Made by a program: the position numbers and the translations under genes. Under the pieces are notes generated by a model. The model was given only the letters and a program-made list of their open reading frames with translations. It was not told where the DNA came from and searched no databases. 64,000 nt of DNA from Rhodospirillaceae bacterium (GTDB taxonomy: Bacteria; Pseudomonadota; Alphaproteobacteria; Rhodospirillales; UBA2165): positions 37,406 through 101,405 of the forward strand of contig JABIHH010000052.1 in assembly GCA_018649725.1 (NCBI GenBank), given 5' to 3'. Positions 42,112 to 54,919 of this stretch are shown here, piece after piece (position 1 is the first letter of the stretch; each line of letters starts with the position of its first letter).

Positions 42112-42903
42112 GTGCTCGTCGAACAAATCTGGACCGAAAACAACTATCGTAATTTTAACTATCTCATAGCTTGTCCGGAAACTGGTGAAGCCATGGCGAT
42201 TGATCCGCTCGATTCTGAGAAATGTCTGGCAGCGGCTAAAAATCGCGGGTGGGAAATTACCCAGATTCTTAACACCCACCACCACCACGACCATATCGAT
42301 GGCAATCAGGCGGTTGTTGATGCGACCGGGGCAAAAGTCATCGCTCATGCCGAGGCGAGCGATCAAATTCCGGGCATGGATATCGGGCTCAAGGCTGGAG
42401 ATGTCGTTAAAGTCGGTAAATCAGTCGACCTCGAAGCACTCGACACCCCTGGCCATACCATGAGCCATATCTGCCTGCTGTCGCAAACTGATGTCCCGGC
42501 GCTCTTTGCCGGTGATACGATGTTCAATGCCGGGGCTGGTAATTGCAAAGGCGGCGGCCATCCGGACGCGCTTTATTCAACTTTTAGCGGCCAGCTTGCC
42601 GGTCTGCCGGACCACACCTTGATCTATCCTGGCCATGACTATCTGGTCAACAATCTCCAATTCACGCTCGACCGTGAGCCTGACAATGAAAAAGCGAAAA
42701 GCCTGCTCGATACATTGGAGAATTATGATCCGCACCAGCCGATGGTGACGAATCTCGGGTTGGAAAAGGAAGTGAACACCTTCTTCCGGCTCGGCAGTGA
42801 CAGCGTCATCGCTCAACTGCGAGACAGCTTTTCAGATCTCCCGGAAGAGCTGGATGAGAAAACCGTCTTTCTGAAATTACGCGAACTTAGAAACGACTGG
42901 TAG
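42112..42903 (+). CDS. gloB: hydroxyacylglutathione hydrolase (glyoxalase II)
   Basis: Metallo-beta-lactamase motif THHHHDHIDGN, TPGHTMSHI, C-terminal HAGH_C-like region. GTG start. Confidence 0.9.
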   Translation: MLVEQIWTENNYRNFNYLIACPETGEAMAIDPLDSEKCLAAAKNRGWEITQILNTHHHHDHIDGNQAVVDATGAKVIAHAEASDQIPGMDIGLKAGDVVKVGKSVDLEALDTPGHTMSHICLLSQTDVPALFAGDTMFNAGAGNCKGGGHPDALYSTFSGQLAGLPDHTLIYPGHDYLVNNLQFTLDREPDNEKAKSLLDTLENYDPHQPMVTNLGLEKEVNTFFRLGSDSVIAQLRDSFSDLPEELDEKTVFLKLRELRNDW

Positions 42904-44139
42904 TTATTCCGCCGGTTGAGCCGCAGTACTGGTCCGGGCATAACGCCCGGCTGCCAGTGCTGTGACAATTGCGAAGAACATGAAAACAGCCGCACCATAA
43001 TAGATGCCGGTGATTTCACCTGAGTCCATAATTCGGCCAAAGATGATTGGCCCAACCATACCGCCAAAGCCAAAGCCCGAGTTTACGAAGCCAAAAGCTT
43101 TCCCTGCATTGCCTTTTGGCGTCACGGCCCGCACCAAGACATCGCGGGACGGCATCACAATGCCGGTCATGAAGCCGGCTATAATTAAAGCCACTGCAGC
43201 CCATAAAAACGGCAAGAAATTTAACGCCACGATGACGGTCATAATAATGCCCGCGAGGTAGCCGACACTAGCCACCAACTCCAAGCGCTGGACTTTATCG
43301 GCAATATATCCGCCCACCAAAACACCGGCTGAGATAGCGGCCATATAAATAAAGAGCACATGGTTCGCGGTCGACAATTCGATGCCATACATGTCCGGCA
43401 AAGCCGAGGGTGAAAACTGCTGGACACCATTGCCTGCCAAGGCGACGGCAATATAGAAAAAAAACAAGATTAGAATAGGCGGAAATTTAATGAATTCCAT
43501 CACGCCCATGGACTGAGAAGCTTGCTGGTTTTTTGCCTCGGCATGCGGCGCTTCATCTTCGCCGATCAACAAATCTTTATTGAACAGCAATATCAGCGTC
43601 ATAATCAGACCCAAAACGCCGGCAATGACCAGCGCGTTCTGCCAACTTGACGCTACCCGAAGCGAATCAACAACAACCGGGGCTGCGGCAAAGCCGGCGA
43701 AGCCTGCAAAAGCATGGGTCGCATAAGCGCGCCCCGATCTTTTGGGCGCAACTGAAGCGGTTAAAACCACGAAATCGGCTGGATGAAAAACACTATCCCC
43801 CCACCCTGCAATCAACGCTAGGCCAACCATCACCCAATAAATCGGGATCAATCCCATCAGCACAAATACCGATGAGACCGTCAACATGCCCAGGATCAAT
43901 ATCCATCTAGGGCCGTATTTATCCGCCAGAACCCCCATCGGATATTGACCGGAAAAAGAGCCAACCGCATAGACAGAGACGATCACACCGAGCTCTGTAA
44001 AGGTGAGATGCAGATCTTCTTTCATCGCCAGAAAAAGCGGTGGCAGAGCCAACAGATAAAAATGTGAAAAGAAGTGGGCTGCGGAAATTAGATGAACGAC
44101 TTTGCGCTCTTTTTTCCGCTCCGCTTTTTCGGCGTCCAT
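42904..44139 (-). CDS. MFS transporter (co-transcribed with LVIVD paralog 1)
   Basis: 411 aa, 12 TM segments, GVLADKYGPRW loop motif. It starts 14 nt after the upstream LVIVD gene stop. Confidence 0.85.
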   Translation of the reverse strand: MDAEKAERKKERKVVHLISAAHFFSHFYLLALPPLFLAMKEDLHLTFTELGVIVSVYAVGSFSGQYPMGVLADKYGPRWILILGMLTVSSVFVLMGLIPIYWVMVGLALIAGWGDSVFHPADFVVLTASVAPKRSGRAYATHAFAGFAGFAAAPVVVDSLRVASSWQNALVIAGVLGLIMTLILLFNKDLLIGEDEAPHAEAKNQQASQSMGVMEFIKFPPILILFFFYIAVALAGNGVQQFSPSALPDMYGIELSTANHVLFIYMAAISAGVLVGGYIADKVQRLELVASVGYLAGIIMTVIVALNFLPFLWAAVALIIAGFMTGIVMPSRDVLVRAVTPKGNAGKAFGFVNSGFGFGGMVGPIIFGRIMDSGEITGIYYGAAVFMFFAIVTALAAGRYARTSTAAQPAE

Positions 44140-44153
44140 AAATCGTTCCTAAT

Positions 44154-45455
44154 TCAACCGGTGAATTCCAAGATATCGAAACCTTTGTCACGGTCGAACA
44201 GATAAATCAAACCCCGTTCGTCAACTTCACAATCATTACTTTGCGGTGCTGCGAAGCCGGCGCGAGGCTCCGGCATGAAATAGCCAACCTCTTCCGGGCG
44301 AGATGGATTGGCGACATCGACAATGCGCAAACCGCCGGCAAACCAAGTCGCACAGACCACACTGCTTTCAAGGTGATCGGTGAACTGATGAGCGCCAAAG
44401 CGAGCGCCGGGCGTCCGCGACCATGGGCAATCCATCTCGGAAACATGGTAAGAGCCAAGCCCTTGAATGTTGTTAAAATCCGTCACATCGAAGGTCCAAA
44501 GATTGGCCGGTGCCTGACCATTGCCAGGAACGCGAGTGTGCTCCTCATCAACGACAACAGCTATGCGGCGGTCATTGATCAACTGAGGGACCGGCAAAAT
44601 CGTATGCGTGGGTTCCCGCACCATCGGATGATAAGTGTGCTCTGCCATTGTCGTCGGCTTGGTGATATCGGAGACATCGATCACTCGAAAGCCCGCTTGC
44701 CAGACAGCCGCCCACATCTCATCACCAACCCGCAAAGCATGATGCAGGCGATGGCTATAACGCGTCCAAGTCGGTGTCTCGCCGCCCGCCAGATGCTGAC
44801 CCGGCATATGCCAGCGCGACACTTCGGTTGGATTGGTAGGATCTGCTAGATCATAGATCACTAAGATGTTGCCGATATAGCCTTCCATCTCGGTCGAGAT
44901 ATAAGCGTAGTTTTCGTCCATATCGAAACGATGGGTGCCAAAACCATGAGTCTTCACATGGGCAAGCTCTTTGGGATTGGTTGGATCAGAAATATCCCAG
45001 GTTTTGAAGCCGCCATCGGTATAGAAGCCCTCTTCCTGGGCCGCGATCATTTCGGGAAGCACATCAATTTTAACGCCTAGCGCTGCGGCAACGCCGGCAT
45101 CTGACGCATCTTTACCTTCGGCTTCGAGCATTACGCGGGTTTCAGGGATACGCGAGCCGGCGCGTAAAACATGGCGGTTATTTTGCTCAACATTGGTGAT
45201 CATGATATCACCGGCCACCCGCACTTTATGAGTATGTGACTTATCGTCACCCAACTTGCTCTGCCAGACAATCTTTGGGTTTTTCGGGTCAGCGACATTA
45301 ATAATGGTCGTGCCATCACGCGGCTTCATATGACCGACATAGGCATAATCGCCCTGGACGACGACTTGGCCGCCGCCAATAAGATCGAGCGAGCCAAGCT
45401 TGGTAATGTTGTGAGCTATGTCGCCGCCGCGATACTCCAATTGTGAATCTGGCAT
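44154..45455 (-). CDS. LVIVD repeat beta-propeller protein, paralog 1 (no signal peptide)
   Basis: Repeated hydrophobic-[IV]-[IVF]-D-[IV]-[SA]-[DN]-P units (TIINVADPKNP, LVIYDLADPTNP, FRVIDVSDITKP, LRIVDVANPSRP). ATG 45455 is preceded by GGGGAGA; the track's upstream extension is rejected. Confidence 0.8.
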   Translation of the reverse strand: MPDSQLEYRGGDIAHNITKLGSLDLIGGGQVVVQGDYAYVGHMKPRDGTTIINVADPKNPKIVWQSKLGDDKSHTHKVRVAGDIMITNVEQNNRHVLRAGSRIPETRVMLEAEGKDASDAGVAAALGVKIDVLPEMIAAQEEGFYTDGGFKTWDISDPTNPKELAHVKTHGFGTHRFDMDENYAYISTEMEGYIGNILVIYDLADPTNPTEVSRWHMPGQHLAGGETPTWTRYSHRLHHALRVGDEMWAAVWQAGFRVIDVSDITKPTTMAEHTYHPMVREPTHTILPVPQLINDRRIAVVVDEEHTRVPGNGQAPANLWTFDVTDFNNIQGLGSYHVSEMDCPWSRTPGARFGAHQFTDHLESSVVCATWFAGGLRIVDVANPSRPEEVGYFMPEPRAGFAAPQSNDCEVDERGLIYLFDRDKGFDILEFTG

Positions 45456-45545
45456 GTTTATCTCCCCGTTTTTGTATTTTATTGAGTGACAGATTACGCT
45501 GTTAGCGCCAAACTGCAAGCCTGAGAAATATGGGGAAATTGAGAA

Positions 45546-46253
45546 ATGGCGAGTGACGAGATTAAAATATTAAGCGCTGGTGCACCAAAATCTGCAGTCG
45601 CCGGTTGCGCCGATGCATTCAGCGAAAAGACCGGTATTCCAATTTGGTACGAGTTCGCCACAGCCCCGATGTTGAAGGAAATTGTCGGCTCTGGCGACTG
45701 TGAAGCAGACATCGTGGTGGCACCCGTCGCAACCTCTCAAGCCTTTGCCGAAGCCGGGCATACTCTTGCCGAGAGCGGCCCTGTCTTAGGCTCCGTCAAA
45801 GCAGCGGTGACGATCAAGAGCGGTGCCACCGAGCCCGACCTCAGCTCAGCCGATACCCTCAAACAAGCCCTCCTCGGCGCCGAGTCCATCGTCTACAATG
45901 AGGCATCGAGCGGTCAATACATCCACACCATGATCGAGCAAATGGGCATTACCGACGCCGTCGCGGACAAGGTCACTCGAACCAAGACCGGCTCAGCCGT
46001 AATGGAACACCTACACGCGAGTTCCCTCACCAATGAGATCGGCTTCGGGCAAGCAACCGAGATTCAAGTTCAGATCAATAAAGGCCTGGATGTCAAACTC
46101 CTCGGCACGCTGCCCAAGGAAGTCGAAAAAATCTCAACCTATAACGCCTCTTTGCTAAGCGCTTCCGCTGACAATCAAGCCGCCAAAGACCTGCTTGAAT
46201 TCATCGCCTCAGACGAAGGTCAGGCCATTTGCAAAGCTACTGGATTGATATAA
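45546..46253 (+). CDS. ModA-like periplasmic-binding-protein-fold protein lacking a signal peptide
   Basis: 235 aa. It begins directly with the first beta-strand (IKILSAGAPKSAV...) of a type II PBP (molybdate/anion-binding-like) with no hydrophobic leader. Confidence 0.65.
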   Translation: MASDEIKILSAGAPKSAVAGCADAFSEKTGIPIWYEFATAPMLKEIVGSGDCEADIVVAPVATSQAFAEAGHTLAESGPVLGSVKAAVTIKSGATEPDLSSADTLKQALLGAESIVYNEASSGQYIHTMIEQMGITDAVADKVTRTKTGSAVMEHLHASSLTNEIGFGQATEIQVQINKGLDVKLLGTLPKEVEKISTYNASLLSASADNQAAKDLLEFIASDEGQAICKATGLI

Positions 46254-46297
46254 AACGGTTTTTCCGCCTATTTAACGACTGTCGTTAAATTAATCAT

Positions 46298-47572
46298 TTA
46301 GCCCTGCCATTCAAGAATATCTAACCCGTTGAAGCGGTCGACGAGGAAGATGGTGCCGTTGTCGGTGACGAAGACGTCGTTGCTTTGCGGCGAGGCGTTA
46401 CCGTCAACCGGTGCTGGCATGAAGTGGCCGACCTCTTGGGGAGTGTAAGGATCAGCGACATCGATGACGCGGAGGCCGCCATTGAACCAGGTGGCGAAAA
46501 TGAGCGTGCCGATGGGTTTCTCATGAAATTGATGCGCACCGAAACGCCCGCCTTTGCGAGCATACGGGCTGTCGAGCTCGCTTAAAACAAATATTGAGAT
46601 CGGTTTAAGCTGGGTCTCATCCGTCACATCAAACACCCAGAGGCCGGCGGGCGGTTGCCCCGTAACCTGGCCGTGCTGCTCATCCACCCCGACGGCGATT
46701 TTCATACCAGCCACGTCTTGATCGAGCGGCATCAACGTGTGTGCCGGCTCAATGAAAGGTGGATTGGTATCATAGGTGCAGATGGTTTTGGGATTGGTAA
46801 TGTCAGACACATCGATCAGCCAGTAGCCGCCATGCCACGCCGCTGCCCAAATGCGATCGCCAAAGCGGAGCCCGTGATGGAGACGGCGATGATCCGCGTT
46901 CCAGTAAGGCTTCTCGCCCGCTGAAATTTTCTGGCCGGGCATCCACCAATGCGACACCTCTTTCGGATCACTCGGATCCGCGCAATCATAGATCACCAGA
47001 ATATTGCCCTGATAGCCGGGCATCTCGGTCGAGATATAGGCGTAGTTCTCATCGACATCAAAACGGTGGGTGCCGAAGCCGCCGGTGCGGACATGCTTGA
47101 GAAGTTTAGGCGCGGCTTTGTCTTTAATGTCATAGACCTTAAAGCCGCCGTCGTGATAGCCCTGCTTACTGGCGGCATCCAAAACCGCAACCTCAGACTC
47201 GCGGATATTCATCTCAGCTGCGACATTCGCATCCGTTGGCTCTTTGCCAGCGGCGGTCAAACTTACACGGATTGCCGGAATGCCATCGCCGCGGCGCATG
47301 TAGTGGCGGTTAAACTGCTCGACATTGGTATACATGATGTCGCCCACCACCCGTGCCTTGTGGGTATGGGATGCCTCTCCCTTGAGCATGATTTGCGAGA
47401 CGATTTTCGGGTTTTTTAAATCCGATATGTCGAGGATCGTCGTCCCGTGCGGCGGATCCATATGGCCGATATAAGCGTGGTTACCAACGACCTCGACCTG
47501 CCCCGCGCCGGGCAAATCGAGATGAGAAATACGCGTTACGTTTTCAGCAATATCTTTATCCGTAGGGGTCAT
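46298..47572 (-). CDS. LVIVD repeat beta-propeller protein, paralog 2 (no signal peptide)
   Basis: Collinear with paralog 1, with long identical blocks (SHTHK, GFGTHRFD.DENYAYISTEM.GY.GNILVIYD, RFGAHQF, ATWF.GGLR..DVA.P). The start at 47572 overlaps the tctA stop by 17 nt. Confidence 0.8.
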   Translation of the reverse strand: MTPTDKDIAENVTRISHLDLPGAGQVEVVGNHAYIGHMDPPHGTTILDISDLKNPKIVSQIMLKGEASHTHKARVVGDIMYTNVEQFNRHYMRRGDGIPAIRVSLTAAGKEPTDANVAAEMNIRESEVAVLDAASKQGYHDGGFKVYDIKDKAAPKLLKHVRTGGFGTHRFDVDENYAYISTEMPGYQGNILVIYDCADPSDPKEVSHWWMPGQKISAGEKPYWNADHRRLHHGLRFGDRIWAAAWHGGYWLIDVSDITNPKTICTYDTNPPFIEPAHTLMPLDQDVAGMKIAVGVDEQHGQVTGQPPAGLWVFDVTDETQLKPISIFVLSELDSPYARKGGRFGAHQFHEKPIGTLIFATWFNGGLRVIDVADPYTPQEVGHFMPAPVDGNASPQSNDVFVTDNGTIFLVDRFNGLDILEWQG

Positions 47573-49082
47573 TCAAAGCAGCCTTATTTCGACGATAATC
47601 CATGAAGTAAGGCAATGCCATCGAGATGACCAACAGAACCCAAAGCGTATTACCGATGGAAGATGAGAAAATCACCATGATATCGCCCTGCGACATCTTC
47701 ATGGCGCGGAGGAAATAGGTCTCCATCAGCGGCCCTAAAATCACACCGATCAAAATGGCGGCAACGTGATAGCCGGTTTTTCGAGCAACATAGCCAATCA
47801 CGCCAAATACCAGCGCCAAGTTCATATCAAACAGATAAGCGCGCGGCACGAAGGAGCCAACGAGCGTAAACGAAATGATGATCGGCGCCATGTAGATGGT
47901 GGAGACGACCGTGATATTCGACATATAGCGCGCCAATGGCAGCACCGAAAATACCATAATTGCGTAAGTGACAGCCATGGCGGTGAACGGTCCAAAGGCA
48001 AGCTCGGGGCTGGTTAAAAAGAGATCCGGTCCGACCGTGACGCCATGGAACTGCAGCACAACCAACATGATAGCTGCTGTCGCGCCGCCGGGAATACCAA
48101 TGACCAACAACGGCACCAAGGTACCCGATGTCACACCATTGTTAGCTGATTCTGGCGCGATCAATCCCTCGACGTGTCCGGTGCCATAAAGCTCGGGCGT
48201 TTTGGAGTAGGTTTTGGATTGCTGATAGGCAACAAAAGACGCAATCGCCGCCCCTGCTCCCGGTACGACGCCGATCACCAAGCCGATGATGCTGTTCCAG
48301 GTAATGTGCCACCATTTGGACGCAGCAATGCGCGCGCCTTCGAACGTCGCCGCCCAGCCAGGCTTGCCCATGGCCGCTTTACCGCGCTCGGTCAGGATCG
48401 ATTGGTTCTCAATTATCGCAAAGGCTTCCGAGATCGCGAACAAACCAACCAAGGCCGGGATCAATGGCACTTTGTCGTAAAGCTCCAAAAAGCCGAAGGT
48501 GCCGCGCGGCGTCTCATAGACAACATCGGTACCGATAAAACCAATCATCAAACCGAAAAAACCGGCAATCAAACCCTTTAACGTATCTTTTGCCGCAATT
48601 GTCGCAATCAAAGATATGCCAAAGAACATGATCACAATCATCTCGACCGAATGGAGATAAAACGCAATTTGTGCCAGCCACGGTAATGAAATCAAAGCCA
48701 CGACTGTGGTCAGCAAACCTCCGGCAATAGACGCGACAAACGACATGGCGAGCGCCTGCTGGCCGCGTCCTTGTTTGGTCATCGGATAGCCATCCAGCGG
48801 CGTTGCCGCGGCCCCTGCGGTGCCTGGAATATTTACCAGGATCGCTGGAATACCTGCGCCCATGCGTGATGACGCATAGAGCGCTACCATAAAGGTTAGA
48901 CCTGTTTCCGGATCCATGGCTAATGTCAGCGGCAGCAAAATAATGATCGTGTTTGCAGCACTAAAGCCCGGGATCGCACCAACAATCAGACCTAAGAATA
49001 TTGCCGGTAAAATAACCCACCAAAAGCTAAAGGTCCGAGCGAACATTTCGACATAGAATGCTAGATCATAATCGAGTTCCAT
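47556..49082 (-). CDS. tctA: tripartite tricarboxylate transporter permease TctA
   Basis: 508 aa, highly hydrophobic, with typical TctA segments (GAIPGFSAANTI, GVVPGAGAAIASFVAY). Confidence 0.9.
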   Translation of the reverse strand: MELDYDLAFYVEMFARTFSFWWVILPAIFLGLIVGAIPGFSAANTIIILLPLTLAMDPETGLTFMVALYASSRMGAGIPAILVNIPGTAGAAATPLDGYPMTKQGRGQQALAMSFVASIAGGLLTTVVALISLPWLAQIAFYLHSVEMIVIMFFGISLIATIAAKDTLKGLIAGFFGLMIGFIGTDVVYETPRGTFGFLELYDKVPLIPALVGLFAISEAFAIIENQSILTERGKAAMGKPGWAATFEGARIAASKWWHITWNSIIGLVIGVVPGAGAAIASFVAYQQSKTYSKTPELYGTGHVEGLIAPESANNGVTSGTLVPLLVIGIPGGATAAIMLVVLQFHGVTVGPDLFLTSPELAFGPFTAMAVTYAIMVFSVLPLARYMSNITVVSTIYMAPIIISFTLVGSFVPRAYLFDMNLALVFGVIGYVARKTGYHVAAILIGVILGPLMETYFLRAMKMSQGDIMVIFSSSIGNTLWVLLVISMALPYFMDYRRNKAALNDPYG

Positions 49083-49083
49083 T

Positions 49084-49599
49084 TTAGAAAAACCCCTTCA
49101 TAAATGTTTCAAAGGGTCCGGCGGGAAATCTCGTTTTGAAAGCAACAATGAATAACAAATAGCCACCGAGCGATAAAGTTGCCGCAAGCGCAAAGATAAG
49201 TCGCTTCTTGCGGAAATCGCTTAGCACTAGCATAGCCATGCTGAGGAAGAGGAAAGTCGTGATCGTAAAACCAAGGCTTGGCACTATAAAAATATAACCA
49301 ATGGTCAATGCTAAGAGACCGAGGCGTTTGGGGATGAAGGATTTCGGATTAACCAAATTATTGAAATTCAATTCACCCTCGCCTGAACTCAAGGAGCGAA
49401 CGGATTTTATAACAATCAATACGACCAAAAAGAGGAGGATTGAGCCGACGATGAAAGCCGCGACTTGTGCCGTCCATGGCGCATTCCAGATGGTGATAAA
49501 ATAATAGATCGTGAAGAAAAATGCGGCGACTGGGATGATGAGTTCACTGCCAATCGAAACTTTCTCAGAGCCTTGAGCTTCGGCATTCTCAGCCATCAA
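49084..49599 (-). CDS. tctB: tripartite tricarboxylate transporter TctB family small membrane protein
   Basis: 171 aa, 4 TM segments, 1-nt gap to tctA. Position and size are typical. Confidence 0.8.
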   Translation of the reverse strand: MMAENAEAQGSEKVSIGSELIIPVAAFFFTIYYFITIWNAPWTAQVAAFIVGSILLFLVVLIVIKSVRSLSSGEGELNFNNLVNPKSFIPKRLGLLALTIGYIFIVPSLGFTITTFLFLSMAMLVLSDFRKKRLIFALAATLSLGGYLLFIVAFKTRFPAGPFETFMKGFF

Positions 49600-49709
49600 G
49601 CAAACTCCCCCTTAATTTTTATTCTGCTAATTCATGCTGTTAGAAATTGGAAATGGGCGGCGTTACTTCTAAAAGCACGCCGCCCAATCCTAGTAGATTA
49701 CTCGCTAGA

Positions 49710-50744
49710 TTAAGTCTTTTTACCGGTTAGGAGATCTTTAAACTCCGCACCGATTTTAGCGATATTTTTCGTATACTCAGCAGCTTGTGCAGCATCCCGG
49801 TAGCCAACGAACTCCCATGGAGATTTCGTTTTTGCATAGGCTTTCTTAAACGCCGGATCCTTGAAAACTTCTTTCAAAGTTTTTTCGATCTTCGCAAAAC
49901 GCTCAGGATGCTTTGCGATGGCTGATTTCTTGACGCCAAAGGCACGTGAACCAGCAATCAGTGAAGGCATACTAGTTTTGAAGTGATCGTTCATGGTCGG
50001 TGCATTTTCAGACCGGCCTGGTAGTGGATTTTTATGCGAGAACATCAGCAAGACTTTGAAGCCTTTTTTGCGGTTAACAATACCGCCTGATGGTAAAGCG
50101 CCGCAATCCATCTCTCCGGTCGCAACACCCGCGCGGGTATTTTTACCACCAGAAAGCGGGATCGGATTGAACTTTGCACCCGTATGTCTGCCAAGCGCCA
50201 GCGCGCCCAAAGTTGCCGGATGAGCCAAACGGCTAACACCAACGTTTAGAGTGCGTTTCTTACCTTCGGCAATTAGATCGTCGATGGTCTTGAACTTAGA
50301 GCGGCGGCTGACAAAAATAATACCGGGATCGCTATCAACTTGAGCAAAATACTGGAAAGTATTGAGATCAAAAGTTGGCTTTTTTACGACCCAGTTAAGA
50401 ACTTCTGGTCCCATGTTACCGAACAGCAATTCATACATATCGTCTTTTGCAAGACCCATATATTTTTCATAGCCAACACGGCCCGCTGCACCTGGGAAAA
50501 ATGACGGCTCAAAAGCAGCGCCAAGGTGATTTTTCCAGACGCCGGTAATAGCGCGGTGTAAACGGTCAGCGCCGCCGCCTTCACGGGTTGGTATATAAGA
50601 TTTAAGATTGTGATCAGGATAACCAGCCGCAAATGCTTTACTAAACGGCATGGTAGAAGCCGCAACTGCACCCGCAACAGCCATAGAGCCTTTAAGAATA
50701 TCCCGGCGGCTCATGCCGAGGTCAATTTTATCATCGAAGTCCAT
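49710..50744 (-). CDS. tctC: Bug/TctC family tripartite tricarboxylate transporter substrate-binding protein (Tat-type leader)
   Basis: Twin-arginine leader SRRDILKGSMAVAGAVAAS...AFA followed by a Bug-family fold (YPDH...IPT.EGGGADR). Confidence 0.85.
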   Translation of the reverse strand: MDFDDKIDLGMSRRDILKGSMAVAGAVAASTMPFSKAFAAGYPDHNLKSYIPTREGGGADRLHRAITGVWKNHLGAAFEPSFFPGAAGRVGYEKYMGLAKDDMYELLFGNMGPEVLNWVVKKPTFDLNTFQYFAQVDSDPGIIFVSRRSKFKTIDDLIAEGKKRTLNVGVSRLAHPATLGALALGRHTGAKFNPIPLSGGKNTRAGVATGEMDCGALPSGGIVNRKKGFKVLLMFSHKNPLPGRSENAPTMNDHFKTSMPSLIAGSRAFGVKKSAIAKHPERFAKIEKTLKEVFKDPAFKKAYAKTKSPWEFVGYRDAAQAAEYTKNIAKIGAEFKDLLTGKKT

Positions 50745-50847
50745 AGTTAATTCCTCCCTTGGAACGTGAGTTAGTTTTATCTAATTTTGTGAAACGATCT
50801 TAGACGTCGTTTTAATTTTTTACCAGTGCACAAATCCGTGAGCACCA

Positions 50848-51777
50848 CTAGCCTTTATAAATAGGCTCAGGTTGTGTCAAAAATGTGTGCAAAATTTGAT
50901 AAGCCATCAGGTAATTTATCTGCTGGAAACTCGCATGTGAAATGCCAGACATAACCTTGAATTGCTTGTCGGGGTTTGGCAGCAAATTAAAGAATTTCAA
51001 CAAATCCTCCATCCCCGCAATACCATCCCACTGACCTCGCATGATCAAACTTGGCATGGTTATTTTGATAGGATCTACGACCGGCAAGTTCTCACACATG
51101 TCTATATAGGTGCCGTTCGGGATCGAGCTATCCAAGGCACAGATCGCCTCGGCAAAGGCCTCAACCACTTTATCTTCAGCGCAGCCAGGATGATCCCGGC
51201 TAAAGATTGAGCGGACAAAATCCAGATCGATCGGACGGCGCCGATTGGCTTTAAACTCAGGTAATTTTTTCCGGCGATTTTCCAGCGTTGGGCTGCCCTC
51301 ACCGGTCCAAACCATAGCATCCATGGCAAGACGATTAACCATGTCTGGATTCCGTTGGGCAAACAGTGCAGCTCGAAGTGCACCAGATGAAATACCGTAG
51401 AGATCTACTTTATCGATGCCTCTGGTTTGGATGATATAATCACAGGCGGCTTTTAAATCATCAGCACTATTCGAAATTAGAAAATGATCATCTCGATCTT
51501 TGTCGGAGCGGCCATAACCCTCCATATCAACACACCAAGTATCAAACCCCTGGAGTGCAAACCAATTCATCACCGACGAATAAGGTCGGCCTTCAACATG
51601 CAGATCAAATGTTGGCTGAGAGGCCATTGAGGAGCCGTGGACAAATACGATAGTACCTTTTTTATCAGCGGGACTATCGACATATTTCTCCCACAGGAAA
51701 AGTTTTATGTCACCTTTATTGGTCCAGTGTTCTTCCCCGGTTACGTCCGCTTCTGAACGTAGACTTTCTTCGCTCAT
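50848..51777 (-). CDS. alpha/beta hydrolase
   Basis: HGSS oxyanion region, nucleophile elbow GISSG, C-terminal GISHAS (His). It heads the same-strand tctCBA-LVIVD gene string. Confidence 0.8.
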   Translation of the reverse strand: MSEESLRSEADVTGEEHWTNKGDIKLFLWEKYVDSPADKKGTIVFVHGSSMASQPTFDLHVEGRPYSSVMNWFALQGFDTWCVDMEGYGRSDKDRDDHFLISNSADDLKAACDYIIQTRGIDKVDLYGISSGALRAALFAQRNPDMVNRLAMDAMVWTGEGSPTLENRRKKLPEFKANRRRPIDLDFVRSIFSRDHPGCAEDKVVEAFAEAICALDSSIPNGTYIDMCENLPVVDPIKITMPSLIMRGQWDGIAGMEDLLKFFNLLPNPDKQFKVMSGISHASFQQINYLMAYQILHTFLTQPEPIYKG

Positions 51778-51901: not shown

Positions 51902-53902
51902 CTACCCTTTAGGTACCGATAATTTAAAATATTCTTCGAATTCCAAAACCACTTTGGTGTCACTGAAGAGCACAGAATTCGCTTCCCTTATGCGCTCTGA
52001 CATTTGTCCGCGATGGGCTTCGTTCTGGCCTAGTTTCAATGCAATACGGACATAGTCTTCGAGGCTACCTGCAATCATCTCCTCGCCCCCCATCATCCGG
52101 TACATACCAGCTGTCACTCGCCCACGCATAAATTCTGCGTCATGGGTTACGACCGGTTTGCCCAGCGCGAAGGCTTCGAATGACGTGTTGCCACCGCTAA
52201 AATGCGGCGTATCTAAAATAACATCAGCGGCATTTTGCAGCGCGATGAAATCTTCCGGAGATTGGCGCGGCACGACTTTAATACGCGCTTCAACATCGGG
52301 TATCGTATCTCGCCACCGATCCCGCACTTGCACTGTCCACTCGCCAACCGCCCCTTCGACAATAGCAATCTCAGCTGCCTCATCCCCCCGCAATATTTCG
52401 CCGAAGATAAAATCCACATCCGGGTGATGCTTAATCGCACTTTGCGGACAGAGATAAAGAGTACAATCCTGGGATAAACCAAAATCGCCGCGGGATTTCA
52501 TGTCGGTAGGCAATTCAATTGGATAGTACCGCGTCGGCAGGCCTTTTAAGCAATGTAGTGCCTCACTGTAATGACCCCCTGCCCCCTCAGGCTCAATCAA
52601 CTCGCTCGAAATAAAGCCATCGATATTGGGAATGCCGGTCGTATCGGGATGCCCCCATGTCACGCATTGATGCGGAGCCAAGCGGGCAAAGGCCAGAAAG
52701 TAAGTTCTGACATCCATACCTAGATCAGCATAGAATAAAATATCCAACTCCTCTGCTGCGACAATTTGCTGGGCTTCAAAAGTATCATCCGGCAAAAAGA
52801 CAACGGTGGCGGCATTGCCTTGGATATCGCGAGCGATTGGATCGCGCTGTCCGCGAGGCGTAATCACCACGACTTCAAAATCATCTTTGGAAATTTCAGC
52901 AATCAACCCCTGCATCATTCGGCCAATCGAATGGCGGCGGAAATAAGCTGATAAAAAGCCGATCTTGATTTTACCGGTCGGCACTTTTGGGGCTTCACAA
53001 TGTGGCGCTACAAAGCCCAAAGCAGGGCAAGCCTTCAGGATTACTTCCGCCGTCTTCTCTTGTAGCTCCCGGTCTGATTTAGCTTGATAGGCCAGGAAAA
53101 AATTCGTGGTCGAAATCTCCAGCGCCGGATCAACCAGCGCCAGATCATCTTTTAAAAGTCGAGCTAATCCATCACTCAATCTATGTCGCACGTCGTCAAT
53201 GTGAGCCGCGTCGCGATAGACCACCGGCAAGGTTGTCGCCTGCTTGATGCGAATGCCATCATGGAAGCGATTGCCGAGCACCTGTTCATAGGCATCGATC
53301 GCTTTCTCGTCCTCACCTTGGCGGCGATAGGTATTGGCAAGATTAATCAGCGCCCGATTGTTTTTTCGTTCTCCGTCTGGCTCAATTCCGATGGCGGTCT
53401 GGAAGCATTTAATGGCCTGCTCCAATTGACCGTTGTCGAAAAAAATATTACCCATATTGACGAGCGCGTCCTGTCGTTTGGGATCAATCGACAGCAATTT
53501 TTCGTAGATCAAGAGTGCGGCATCAGGCAATTCCATCTGCTTGTAAAGCTTAGCAAGATTGTAATACCCCTCGGTGAAAGAGCCATCGGCATCAATGGCG
53601 TGCTGATAGGCTGCTTTAGCTTGATCATATTTTCCGAGATCTTGGAGAATCACACCGAGATTAACATGATAGGGCGCATTTCTAGGTTTGAGTTCAATGG
53701 CCCGGCGTAAAAATTCGACGGCCTGCTCGGGTCGTCCACTCTGTGCCAAGGTGGTCCCTAACAGGTGGAGAGCATCGGCGTGAGTAGGCTCCAAGCGCAG
53801 AATTTTGATGTAGAGTTCTTCGGCTTCAGAGAGACGCCTTGCCTGATGATGGGTTTGAGCCTCAGCAAAAAGTGCTTTGATTTGTTTTTTGGGCGAGGTC
53901 AT
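51902..53902 (-). CDS. TPR-repeat protein fused to a GT41 (SPINDLY/O-GlcNAc-transferase-like) glycosyltransferase domain
   Basis: About 6 N-terminal TPR units (A..Y...L...P....AL..LG). The C-terminal half has APHQCVTWGHPDTTGIPNIDGFISSELIEP and SGGNTSFEAFALGKPVVT, typical of bacterial GT41. ATG 53902 with GAGG RBS is preferred over TTG 53914. Confidence 0.8.
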   Translation of the reverse strand: MTSPKKQIKALFAEAQTHHQARRLSEAEELYIKILRLEPTHADALHLLGTTLAQSGRPEQAVEFLRRAIELKPRNAPYHVNLGVILQDLGKYDQAKAAYQHAIDADGSFTEGYYNLAKLYKQMELPDAALLIYEKLLSIDPKRQDALVNMGNIFFDNGQLEQAIKCFQTAIGIEPDGERKNNRALINLANTYRRQGEDEKAIDAYEQVLGNRFHDGIRIKQATTLPVVYRDAAHIDDVRHRLSDGLARLLKDDLALVDPALEISTTNFFLAYQAKSDRELQEKTAEVILKACPALGFVAPHCEAPKVPTGKIKIGFLSAYFRRHSIGRMMQGLIAEISKDDFEVVVITPRGQRDPIARDIQGNAATVVFLPDDTFEAQQIVAAEELDILFYADLGMDVRTYFLAFARLAPHQCVTWGHPDTTGIPNIDGFISSELIEPEGAGGHYSEALHCLKGLPTRYYPIELPTDMKSRGDFGLSQDCTLYLCPQSAIKHHPDVDFIFGEILRGDEAAEIAIVEGAVGEWTVQVRDRWRDTIPDVEARIKVVPRQSPEDFIALQNAADVILDTPHFSGGNTSFEAFALGKPVVTHDAEFMRGRVTAGMYRMMGGEEMIAGSLEDYVRIALKLGQNEAHRGQMSERIREANSVLFSDTKVVLEFEEYFKLSVPKG

Positions 53903-53923
53903 GCCACCTCTCAAACCACGCGG

Positions 53924-54919
53924 CTATATAAGACCAGAAAGCGGCGAAGATGGATCGGCATACATCTTGCGCGGCATCCGGCCAGCAAGATAAGCCAAGC
54001 GACCCGCTTCAACGCCGGCTTTCATCGCACGGGCCATTTTAATCGGATCTGTAGCACCGGCAATTGCCGTGTTCATCAACACACCATCACAGCCAAGCTC
54101 CATTGCAATCGCCGCATCAGATGCCGTGCCGACACCGGCATCAACCAGAACAGGCACGGAGGACTGTTCCTTGATCAGGCGAATGGTGACCGGATTTTGC
54201 ACACCCAGCCCAGAGCCAATCGGTGCCGCCAGTGGCATGATCGCGTGACAGCCCATGTCTTCGAGGCGCTTTGCGATGATCGGATCATCGCTGCAATAAA
54301 CCATAACTTTAAAATCTTCTTTGAGCAGAATTTCTGCCGCTTCAAGCGTCTCGATCATTTTCGGGTACAGCGTTTTCTCATCGCCCAAAACTTCGAGTTT
54401 CACCAGATCCCAGCCCCCAGCCTCTCTCGCCAAACGCAAAGTTCGAACCGCATCATCGGCGGTAAAGCAGCCAGCGGTATTTGGCAGATAGGTATATTTC
54501 TTGGGATCAACATAATCGACCAGCATCGGCTGGTTCGGATCGGTGACGTTCACCCGGCGCACGGCAACGGTAACAATCTCTGCGCCCGATGCCTCGATCG
54601 CAGCCGCGGTTTCTTCGAAATCCTTATATTTGCCAGTGCCAACCAGAAGGCGTGATTTAAAGACCTGCCCAGCTACCTCAAAGGTATCGTCGGCACTAAC
54701 CGCACTCGTTCCTTCAGGTGCACCGCCGCCAATGAAATGGACAATCTCAAATTTATCGCCATCAGTTACGGCGACTTCGCCATATTGGGATTTGGGCACG
54801 ATTTCCAAATTGCGCTCAACCGCCACCTTGCGACCATCCAGCCCAAGATTTCCCAAGAGTTGTTCTACCGTAGCGGCACCGTCGATGGTGCGACCTTCAC
54901 CGTTAATTGTTACGTTCAT
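53924..54919 (-). CDS. thiG: in-frame fusion of sulfur carrier ThiS and thiazole synthase ThiG
   Basis: Residues 1-66 form a complete ThiS ending ...[10 protein letters not shown]. No stop follows: a linker of about 20 aa leads into ThiG ([12 protein letters not shown]...[14 protein letters not shown]...[14 protein letters not shown]). Confidence 0.9.

Follow-up and report, generated by a model that had tools for sequence, protein, structure and literature searches.

Proteins built of LVIVD repeats were originally described as cell-surface proteins, and their fold has one characterised distant member, Sb-PTE, the haloalkylphosphorus hydrolase (phosphotriesterase, PTE) of Sphingobium sp. TCM1 (PDB entries 5hrm and 5ioj). 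Sb-PTE is a seven-bladed propeller acting on neutral xenobiotic triesters, and it is reportedly secreted and contains three disulfides. The SBP56/MtoX (SELENBP1) proteins are likewise beta-propellers with a His-bound metal, and bacterial MtoX is periplasmic and needs copper. As to transporters, some tripartite tricarboxylate transporters (TTTs; TctCBA), such as TphC/TpiBA for terephthalate and SlcHFG for sulfolactate, have a catabolic gene next to them, so that an organic-anion importer is encoded beside its enzyme. We analysed a 64,000-nucleotide window of a Rhodospirillaceae bacterium genome (assembly GCA_018649725.1, contig JABIHH010000052.1, positions 37,406 to 101,405), in which a cluster at window positions 42904-51777 contains a complete TTT operon and two paralogous LVIVD propeller genes, designated LV1 (44154-45455, minus strand; 433 aa) and LV2 (46298-47572, minus strand; 424 aa).

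An importer operon combined with a catabolic enzyme is an arrangement of an ordinary kind. What appears to be new, as judged from the sequences, is that the propeller fold has a cytoplasmic branch that is coupled to transporters, very large, and tightly conserved, with an apparently altered, anion-adapted metal site. Our preferred reading, to which we give an even chance, is that LV1 and LV2 are cytoplasmic binuclear metallohydrolases acting on an anionic, TTT-imported solute, and that they belong to a large, Sb-PTE-like branch of LVIVD proteins. The literature on LVIVD proteins, on TTT systems together with beta-propellers, and on Sb-PTE homologues yielded no characterisation of the family. 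The sole lead was cadB1 of Herbaspirillum lusitanum TQ07, a gene of the chloranilic-acid cluster for an 'LVIVD repeat-containing protein' placed among the pathway enzymes, which directly adjoins cadB2, the gene for a solute-binding protein of a TAXI-type tripartite ATP-independent periplasmic (TRAP) transporter (PMC13191619). The CadB1 protein goes with a different transporter family, and is likened to LV1 and LV2 by its description only. An earlier reading of this DNA, made from the letters without database searches (hereafter the sequence-only reading), had called the arrangement an undescribed module; this holds insofar as no source names a function, but the fold and metal centre are known from the distant homologue Sb-PTE (5hrm).

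Fold and predicted metal site of the propeller proteins

LV1 and LV2 are collinear and align from end to end with 55% identity (E = 7e-164), close to the one-half estimated by eye in the sequence-only reading. Both contain LVIVD repeats (65.9 bits in LV1 and 55.8 bits in LV2, against a Pfam gathering score of 20.2), both have a histidine content of 4.6-4.7%, and both carry the series of His-containing blocks noticed earlier, i.e. SHTHK, GTHRFD, RLHH, EP[TA]HT, and GAHQF. Residues are numbered according to LV2 throughout. Among 187 family members, H37, H71, H169, H232, H233, H278, and H347 are invariant and H69 is present in 186; K72, R170, E85, D297, E298, and N398 are likewise invariant, and D399 is present in 186. 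LV1 and LV2 contain two to three cysteines, none of which is conserved in the family.

The AlphaFold2 (AF2) model of LV2 (pLDDT 88, pTM 0.88) has seven blades of four strands each with N-terminal closure, and a three-helix insert (residues 89-137, window positions ~47162-47308) separates strands B and C of blade 2. In this model, the innermost (first) strands of blades 3-6 bear H169, H232, H278, and H347, and H69 and H71 come just ahead of the innermost strand of blade 2, as would be expected of an axial metal site. As modelled, the invariant His/Glu constellation on the inner strands of the propeller is a predicted metal active site. Mapping of the histidines on a predicted propeller, proposed in the sequence-only reading as a check, gave a pattern in keeping with the metal or active site that it had supposed; the structure search proposed with it returned a characterised relative. 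In a Foldseek comparison of the LV2 model with the PDB, Sb-PTE (5hrm) occupied ranks one and two (E = 5e-17; TM score 0.67 on the query and 0.58 on the target), followed by generic WD40 proteins at 1e-8. A single-sequence search of the PDB matched one LVIVD repeat of 5hrm only, and a wider profile was needed for a full-length match. The superfamily profile, consisting of 17 sequences at 30-54% identity, some of which have their own signal peptides, matched 5hrm over its full length in hmmsearch (E = 1.3e-20), and alignment to Sb-PTE by hhalign gave a probability of 99.1% and an E value of 1.7e-18 over 352 columns.

The ligands of the binuclear Mn centre of Sb-PTE are reportedly E201, H258, H317, H389, E407, and H475 (Mabanglo et al. 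2016), and when an offset of 87 residues (5hrm/5ioj) is applied, the PDB sequence has the right letter at each of the six. H258, H389, and E407 correspond to H169, H278, and E298 of LV2, respectively, by MAFFT, hhalign, and hmmsearch; H317 corresponds to H232 by MAFFT and hhalign; and H475 corresponds to H347 exactly by hmmsearch and within three residues by the other methods. Four of the six ligands are therefore matched by invariant residues and the fifth within three residues, in the same blade order in both proteins, and the 17 superfamily members have precisely these five as their invariant residues. The bridging E201 is not conserved; an H69-x-H71 motif, extended to H-x-H-K in the family, is found at that spot. 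In addition, K72 and R170, which are next to ligands, replace Ala and Met of Sb-PTE. The invariant Lys and Arg suggest that the substrate is anionic, in contrast to the neutral triesters of Sb-PTE. The family further differs from Sb-PTE in its 48-residue helical insert and in the embedding of its genes in a TTT operon.

Absence of signal peptides

No signal peptide is present on LV1 or LV2, as the sequence-only reading had stated, and no alternative upstream start supplies one. LV2 has no in-frame start upstream of its ATG at 47572. In LV1, the sole possible extension begins at TTG 45518, adds 21 aa, and is not signal-like, and the ATG at 45455 is preceded at a distance of 7 nt by a GGGGAG ribosome-binding site. 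Throughout the family, the N-termini lie ~10 residues ahead of the first strand. The cell-surface location of the original LVIVD description therefore does not apply to LV1 and LV2 with any start, and the two proteins, leaderless and without a conserved cysteine, also differ from Sb-PTE as a secreted, disulfide-stabilised enzyme. Aldo-keto reductases normally use cytoplasmic NAD(P)H, and an aldo-keto reductase gene adjoins the propeller gene at 24 of the loci described below; together with the lack of a signal peptide, we count this adjacency in favour of a cytoplasmic location.

Distribution and names of the family

Among 8,000 scored candidates, the homologues fall into more than 4,100 clusters (90% identity), almost all of ~425 aa, and relatives were found in at least 580 species in a scan of one genome per species. 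The family is spread over Alpha-, Beta-, and Gammaproteobacteria of sea and soil, with carriers such as Kiloniellaceae, Pelagibius, SAR116, Skermanella, Xanthobacteraceae, Burkholderiales, and Arenicellales. Cultured carriers include Skermanella rosea, Pelagibius litoralis DSM 21314, and Ancylobacter polymorphus. The wider superfamily has 22,556 representatives, and the helical insert is absent from its shorter members (385-395 aa).

Database names of ten clusters were 'hypothetical', 'LVIVD repeat-containing', or 'sigma-70', and none was functional. The name 'RNA polymerase sigma-70' is an annotation error, as sigma regions 2 and 4 are missing from the family. The helical insert alone resembles sigma region 3 (PDB 1rp3, E = 0.0036; a faint PF04539 match in two homologues), and this weak likeness explains the misnomer. 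Three other identities were ruled out by scores, i.e. choice-of-anchor B proteins (41 and 36 bits with a hidden Markov model whose cutoff is 100), SBP56/MtoX (19.6 and 24.6 bits against 34 for SBP56; 16.3 against 650 for MtoX), and a nitrous oxide reductase-like protein.

Linkage to TTT operons and recurrent partner genes

Gene neighbourhoods were counted at 80 species-level loci, of which a subset of 58 had enough upstream DNA to be informative. An orthologous tctA (at least 50% identity, same strand) lies within 1.2 kb upstream of the propeller gene at 49 of the 80 loci and within 200 bp at 42, and a tctC-tctB-tctA operon is located directly upstream at 44 of the 58 informative loci. The exceptions are mostly Betaproteobacteria with an orphan Bug-type tctC nearby. 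From its place at the end of a TTT operon, the propeller protein is probably the first enzyme acting on the imported compound. Among known TctCBA systems, a propeller metalloenzyme as the partner would be unusual: no earlier tie of such a protein to TTT was found in the literature. The TctC of this module also differs from those of the known systems in forming a divergent subfamily with a twin-arginine translocation (Tat) signal; of 48 module TctC proteins, 39 have a strict RR motif, and several of the other nine show looser RR variants. Module TctC proteins are nearly always Tat-signalled, whereas the orphan Bug-type TctC proteins in loci L005-L084 are mostly of the Sec type.

Several other genes recur in these neighbourhoods. 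An aldo-keto reductase gene (24/80) lies at a median distance of 10 bp downstream of the propeller gene; genes for a hydrolase of the fumarylacetoacetate hydrolase (FAH) family (16/80), OsmC (about 12/80), a TauE-like exporter (11/80), a ModA-fold protein (10/80), and an Amidohydro_2 protein (8/80) are also present, and the sets of loci with the TauE-like and ModA-fold genes do not overlap at all. Orthologues of the alpha/beta hydrolase of the window (64-82% identity) sit ahead of tctC or right behind the propeller gene, and occur at 23 of the 80 loci when at least 60% identity is required. On plasmid pSR-2 of Skermanella rosea, a cultured strain, the genes for an FCD/GntR regulator, TauE, aldo-keto reductase, alpha/beta hydrolase, TctC, TctB, TctA, and the LVIVD protein form one string (L092; NZ_CP086113.1, ~494-502 kb), with genes for an FAH hydrolase and a CoA-ester lyase in divergent orientation; the strain would serve well as a genetic model. 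In five loci of Pelagibius/Kiloniellaceae (L013, L026-L028, and L032), the LVIVD gene is followed at a distance of 2-5 kb by genes for a SulP permease, a persulfide-dioxygenase-like metallo-beta-lactamase, and a flavoprotein resembling sulfide:quinone reductase, which may either be synteny peculiar to the lineage or point to sulfur chemistry.

More distant relatives are also found beside importer genes. A 387-aa Xanthobacter-type relative is encoded by the last gene of an ATP-binding cassette (ABC) importer operon, and relatives with ~30% identity on megaplasmids of Rahnella, Erwinia, and rhizobia are leaderless and encoded behind an orphan gene for a sugar-type solute-binding protein. At L093 7897-10221 (Rahnella aceris pRAHAQ01) and L088 184-5138, distant leaderless relatives with ~30-42% identity are encoded behind an orphan gene for a sugar-type ABC solute-binding protein or by the last gene of an ABC importer operon. 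Together with the position of cadB1 beside a TAXI-TRAP gene, these cases suggest that solute-binding-protein genes and His-propeller genes are paired generally, whatever the transporter family.

Two paralogues in one cluster

All TTT-linked orthologues outside the window are nearer to LV1 (58-66% identity) than to LV2 (53-59%). In a rough neighbour-joining tree, LV1 is nested in the canonical TTT-linked clade, and LV2 belongs to a separate basal clade with the homologues P0001, P0003, and P0005 and with the first copies of loci L085, L086, and L087. This clade is limited to a few lineages, in which its member is invariably placed in the slot that separates tctA from the ModA-like gene. In single-copy genomes with a ModA-like gene, the order is tctA, the ModA-like gene on the opposite strand, and then an LV1-type gene. 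In L091 (7705-7884), a 59-aa remnant of the LV2 type is left between tctA and the ModA-like gene and the remaining cluster is intact; the second paralogue is thus dispensable in this genome. A same-strand LV1-MFS pair (MFS, major facilitator superfamily) is found only in the window and in its close relative L085; at five of the 80 loci, an MFS gene with 34-39% identity is convergent to the propeller gene on the opposite strand. The clade positions, the constant slot, and the gene context indicate a single cluster with an optional second propeller rather than two independent transporter-enzyme pairs, and LV2 is, on its sequence, apparently an ancient extra copy kept in few lineages.

The sequence-only reading had connected each paralogue to a transporter of its own. 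This connection is weak in the comparison, since the canonical LV1 type follows tctA in most genomes and adjacency to MFS is rare and in opposite orientation. Its broader expectation, that the linkage of LVIVD and transporter genes would be conserved, was borne out for TctA and not for MFS.

The ModA-fold gene

Between the two paralogues lies a plus-strand gene for a leaderless protein of 235 aa (45546-46253; Pfam SBP_bac_11, 6.1e-26), divergent from LV1, which the sequence-only reading had passed over. Its AF2 model (pLDDT 93.8) is best matched in Foldseek by ModA/YvgL-like (oxyanion) binding proteins with TM scores of 0.75-0.8, and it shares with the ModA molybdate-binding proteins the type II periplasmic-binding-protein fold and Ser/Thr-rich loops at the anion-site positions. 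It differs from them in having no signal peptide and no partner genes of an ABC transporter (no modBC nearby), in scoring below the modA cutoff (TIGR01256, 35.8 against 62.5 bits), and in being paired divergently with an LVIVD enzyme gene. The 120 relatives listed are mostly 231-241 aa, with a few of up to 268 aa. In addition to the 10 species-level loci, the gene stands beside LVIVD in L085, L086, L087, and L091, i.e. at no fewer than 14 loci and never with the TauE-like exporter, and more distant homologues occur in unrelated contexts. The simplest reading of the modelled fold is that the protein likely binds an oxyanion group or product in the cytoplasm.

Gene organization of the window locus

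The region 42904-51777 contains eight genes, seven of which are on the minus strand, the exception being the ModA-fold gene between LV2 and LV1. The string begins with the alpha/beta hydrolase gene (50848-51777, minus; 309 aa), whose product has a GISSG nucleophile elbow and matches Pfam Hydrolase_4 (6.6e-18) and Abhydrolase_1. It is followed by tctC (49710-50744, minus), encoding the periplasmic solute-binding protein with a twin-arginine signal (SRRDILKG; Pfam TAT_signal), tctB (49084-49599, minus) for the small membrane subunit (Pfam TctB, 3.7e-10, 40.5 bits), and tctA (47556-49082, minus) for the large permease subunit (Pfam TctA, 1.7e-120, 402.9 bits), so that one operon supplies a complete TTT set. 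The ATG of LV2 overlaps the end of tctA by 17 nt, and the stop codon of LV1 is separated by 14 nt from the ATG of the MFS transporter gene (42904-44139, minus; 411 aa; Pfam MFS_1, 1.6e-46). Both spacings and the coordinates of the reading frames agree with the sequence-only reading, and its naming of the hydrolase, TctCBA, and MFS genes is upheld by the Pfam and PDB matches. The window TctC scores below the Pfam TctC model (E = 0.01) and its orthologues do carry PF03401; TTT solute-binding proteins in the PDB match it at E = 8e-12. PDB searches gave no informative close relative of the hydrolase, TctC, or the ModA-like protein, and in particular no close characterised relative of the hydrolase (best match, E = 8e-5). 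The NCBIfam families nearest to the MFS protein are anion transporters (PgtP/OPA, 2.4e-28; D-galactonate, 1.1e-23), all scoring far under cutoff.

As stated in the sequence-only reading, there is no regulator gene within 42904-51777. A 90-bp divergent intergenic region (45456-45545) is common to the ModA-like gene and LV1-MFS and has promoter-like matches on both strands that are not above chance. In the gap where LV2 and the ModA-like gene converge with their 3' ends, a 17-nt perfect palindrome, TTAACGAC-A-GTCGTTAA (46272-46288), was read straight from the sequence and may be a bidirectional terminator, although the terminator scan gave it no score. Scans of the cluster for promoters and terminators gave nothing above the shuffled expectation, and an Rfam scan found no riboswitch or RNA element.

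The cluster is flanked by a gene for a glyoxalase II-like metallo-beta-lactamase with an HAGH_C domain (42112-42903, plus), which ends base-to-base against the MFS stop codon and is otherwise kept in the close relative L085 alone. Directly upstream of the hydrolase gene and on its strand are the genes for a protein with tetratricopeptide repeats and a GT41-like (O-GlcNAc-transferase-type) domain (51902-53914, minus) and for a ThiS-ThiG fusion (53924-54919, minus), both of which are syntenic in L085.

Proposed function and alternatives

In the scheme that we propose, the Tat-exported TctC would capture an anionic organic solute in the periplasm and TctBA would import it. The propeller enzyme, the next product of the same message after TctA, would then cleave an ester-type bond with a hydroxide that a two-metal centre on the propeller axis activates. 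This bond might be a phospho- or sulfo-ester, a lactone, or a carboxyl ester. The putative metals, of a number and kind presumed by analogy with Sb-PTE, would be held by H169, H232, H278, E298, and H347, with the H69-x-H71 motif in place of the bridging Glu; K72 and R170 would hold the anionic group of the substrate, and the three-helix insert, which may cover the active-site face, would probably set specificity. LV2 possibly has a shifted specificity. The alpha/beta hydrolase would act in the same pathway, as would, elsewhere, the aldo-keto reductase, the FAH-family hydrolase, OsmC, and the TauE-like anion exporter. The presence of either a TauE-like or a ModA-like protein, the anion families nearest to the MFS protein, and the phosphoesterase relative would fit an organic acid esterified with phosphate or sulfate without proving it, and cleavage of a lactone or carboxyl ester is about as likely. 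The view that the propellers are cytoplasmic enzymes acting on an imported organic acid, advanced in the sequence-only reading, is thus strengthened by the lack of leaders, the metal-site residues, and the conserved TTT linkage, and its division into two substrates and two transporters finds little support.

A number of points weigh against this scheme. Identity to Sb-PTE is only 15-24%, its bridging Glu201 is not conserved in the family, and its ligand list was checked by residue letters alone. The invariant histidines H37, H69, H71, and H233 go beyond the need of a PTE, and the metal site could accordingly differ in nuclearity or chemistry. No biochemical data were found for any family member, the substrate class is a guess, and the reductase, FAH hydrolase, OsmC, and Amidohydro_2 protein could about equally well serve in oxidation or ring cleavage.

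These last points lead to an alternative in which the propeller would be an oxidase or oxygenase with His-ligated Fe or Cu, either a thiol oxidase of the SBP56/MtoX kind or a ring- or quinone-cleaving enzyme, converting an imported thiol, phenolic, or hydroxyquinone acid into an aldehyde, peroxide, or sulfide to be handled by the reductase, OsmC, the FAH and alpha/beta hydrolases, and TauE. It draws on cadB1, which lies in a hydroxyquinone cluster beside genes for an FAD oxidoreductase and a pyrone hydrolase (PMC13191619). Also consistent with it are the surplus of histidines (seven invariant, and H69 in 186 of 187), the weak SBP56 and MtoX matches, the neighbouring genes for OsmC, aldo-keto reductase, FAH hydrolase, Amidohydro_2, LigAB, and glutathione S-transferase, and the sulfide and sulfite genes near the Kiloniellaceae loci. 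We regard such an oxidase as a real rival to our reading but an unlikely one, since the SBP56 match is local (~27 residues), scores for both families are far below cutoff, neither is among the top structural matches, and the sole strong relative in structure and sequence is a hydrolase; moreover, multicopper sites are unusual in the cytoplasm, and cadB1 comes without biochemistry and with a putative place in the subfamily. The metal site could instead belong to a cytoplasmic metal-handling partner of the transporter, not a catabolic enzyme, which would, for example, receive the metal of an imported metal-carboxylate complex or release it. TTT systems do import metal-citrate complexes (bioRxiv 10.64898/2026.07.27.740893), a His-rich axial site is compatible with metal binding, and the propeller gene stands right behind tctA whatever its other neighbours. 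This role is very improbable in our view, however, because the ligand set reproduces a catalytic binuclear centre with an invariant Lys and Arg beside it, the propeller travels with hydrolases and reductases, and its relatives go with solute-binding proteins of the sugar and TAXI types, which carry no metals.

Two further alternatives concern the arrangement rather than the chemistry. That LV1 and LV2 are two enzyme variants for two substrates, LV2 served by TTT and LV1 by MFS, as the sequence-only reading had it, would account for the tight spacing of both LV1-MFS and tctA-LV2, the identical arrangement in L085, the same-subfamily MFS beside LVIVD in five other species, and paralogues that differ at 45% of positions and keep all catalytic residues. 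Yet the proteins encoded behind tctA in most genomes are of the LV1 type, MFS is absent from 75 of the 80 loci and on the opposite strand where present, the second copy in L086 is followed by an FAH hydrolase gene and not by MFS, LV2 has decayed in L091 with the rest of the cluster intact, and the MFS protein could equally be an exporter; we consider this version quite unlikely. Finally, the leaderless propeller could leave the cytoplasm in a folded state, hitchhiking with the twin-arginine TctC through the Tat system, and act in the periplasm, upstream of uptake. The contrast between the almost regularly Tat-signalled module TctC and the neighbouring Sec-type orphans fits such export, as do the signal peptides of some superfamily members and Sb-PTE itself, reportedly secreted with disulfides. 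It is, all the same, the most improbable of the explanations considered here, given that no cysteine is conserved in the family, that the gene is tightly coupled to those for aldo-keto reductase and other leaderless enzymes, and that a Tat-signalled TctC is known without such a partner, as the name of PDB entry 5oei indicates.

Implications for the family

Beyond the cytoplasmic metallohydrolase that we prefer, a bolder extension is possible, if doubtful. TctCBA-LVIVD, together with the alpha/beta hydrolase and either the TauE-like exporter or the ModA-like protein, may constitute a widespread, unrecognised pathway for the uptake and cleavage of an abundant anionic ester, such as sulfated or phosphorylated hydroxy-acids or a lactone acid; this would be the native chemistry behind the recruitment of Sb-PTE, and the pairing of solute-binding protein and LVIVD protein would be general across TTT, TRAP/TAXI, and ABC transporters.

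The recurrent annotation of these proteins as 'RNA polymerase sigma-70' can be corrected. As regards the flame-retardant phosphotriesterase Sb-PTE, its fold and metal centre fall within a large natural family of mostly cytoplasmic, transporter-linked proteins, which bears on its origin. TTT transporters are very numerous in Proteobacteria and few have known substrates, and the conserved unit of TctCBA plus enzyme, present in at least 580 species, offers a tractable entry point: one TctC ligand and one enzyme activity would annotate thousands of genes.

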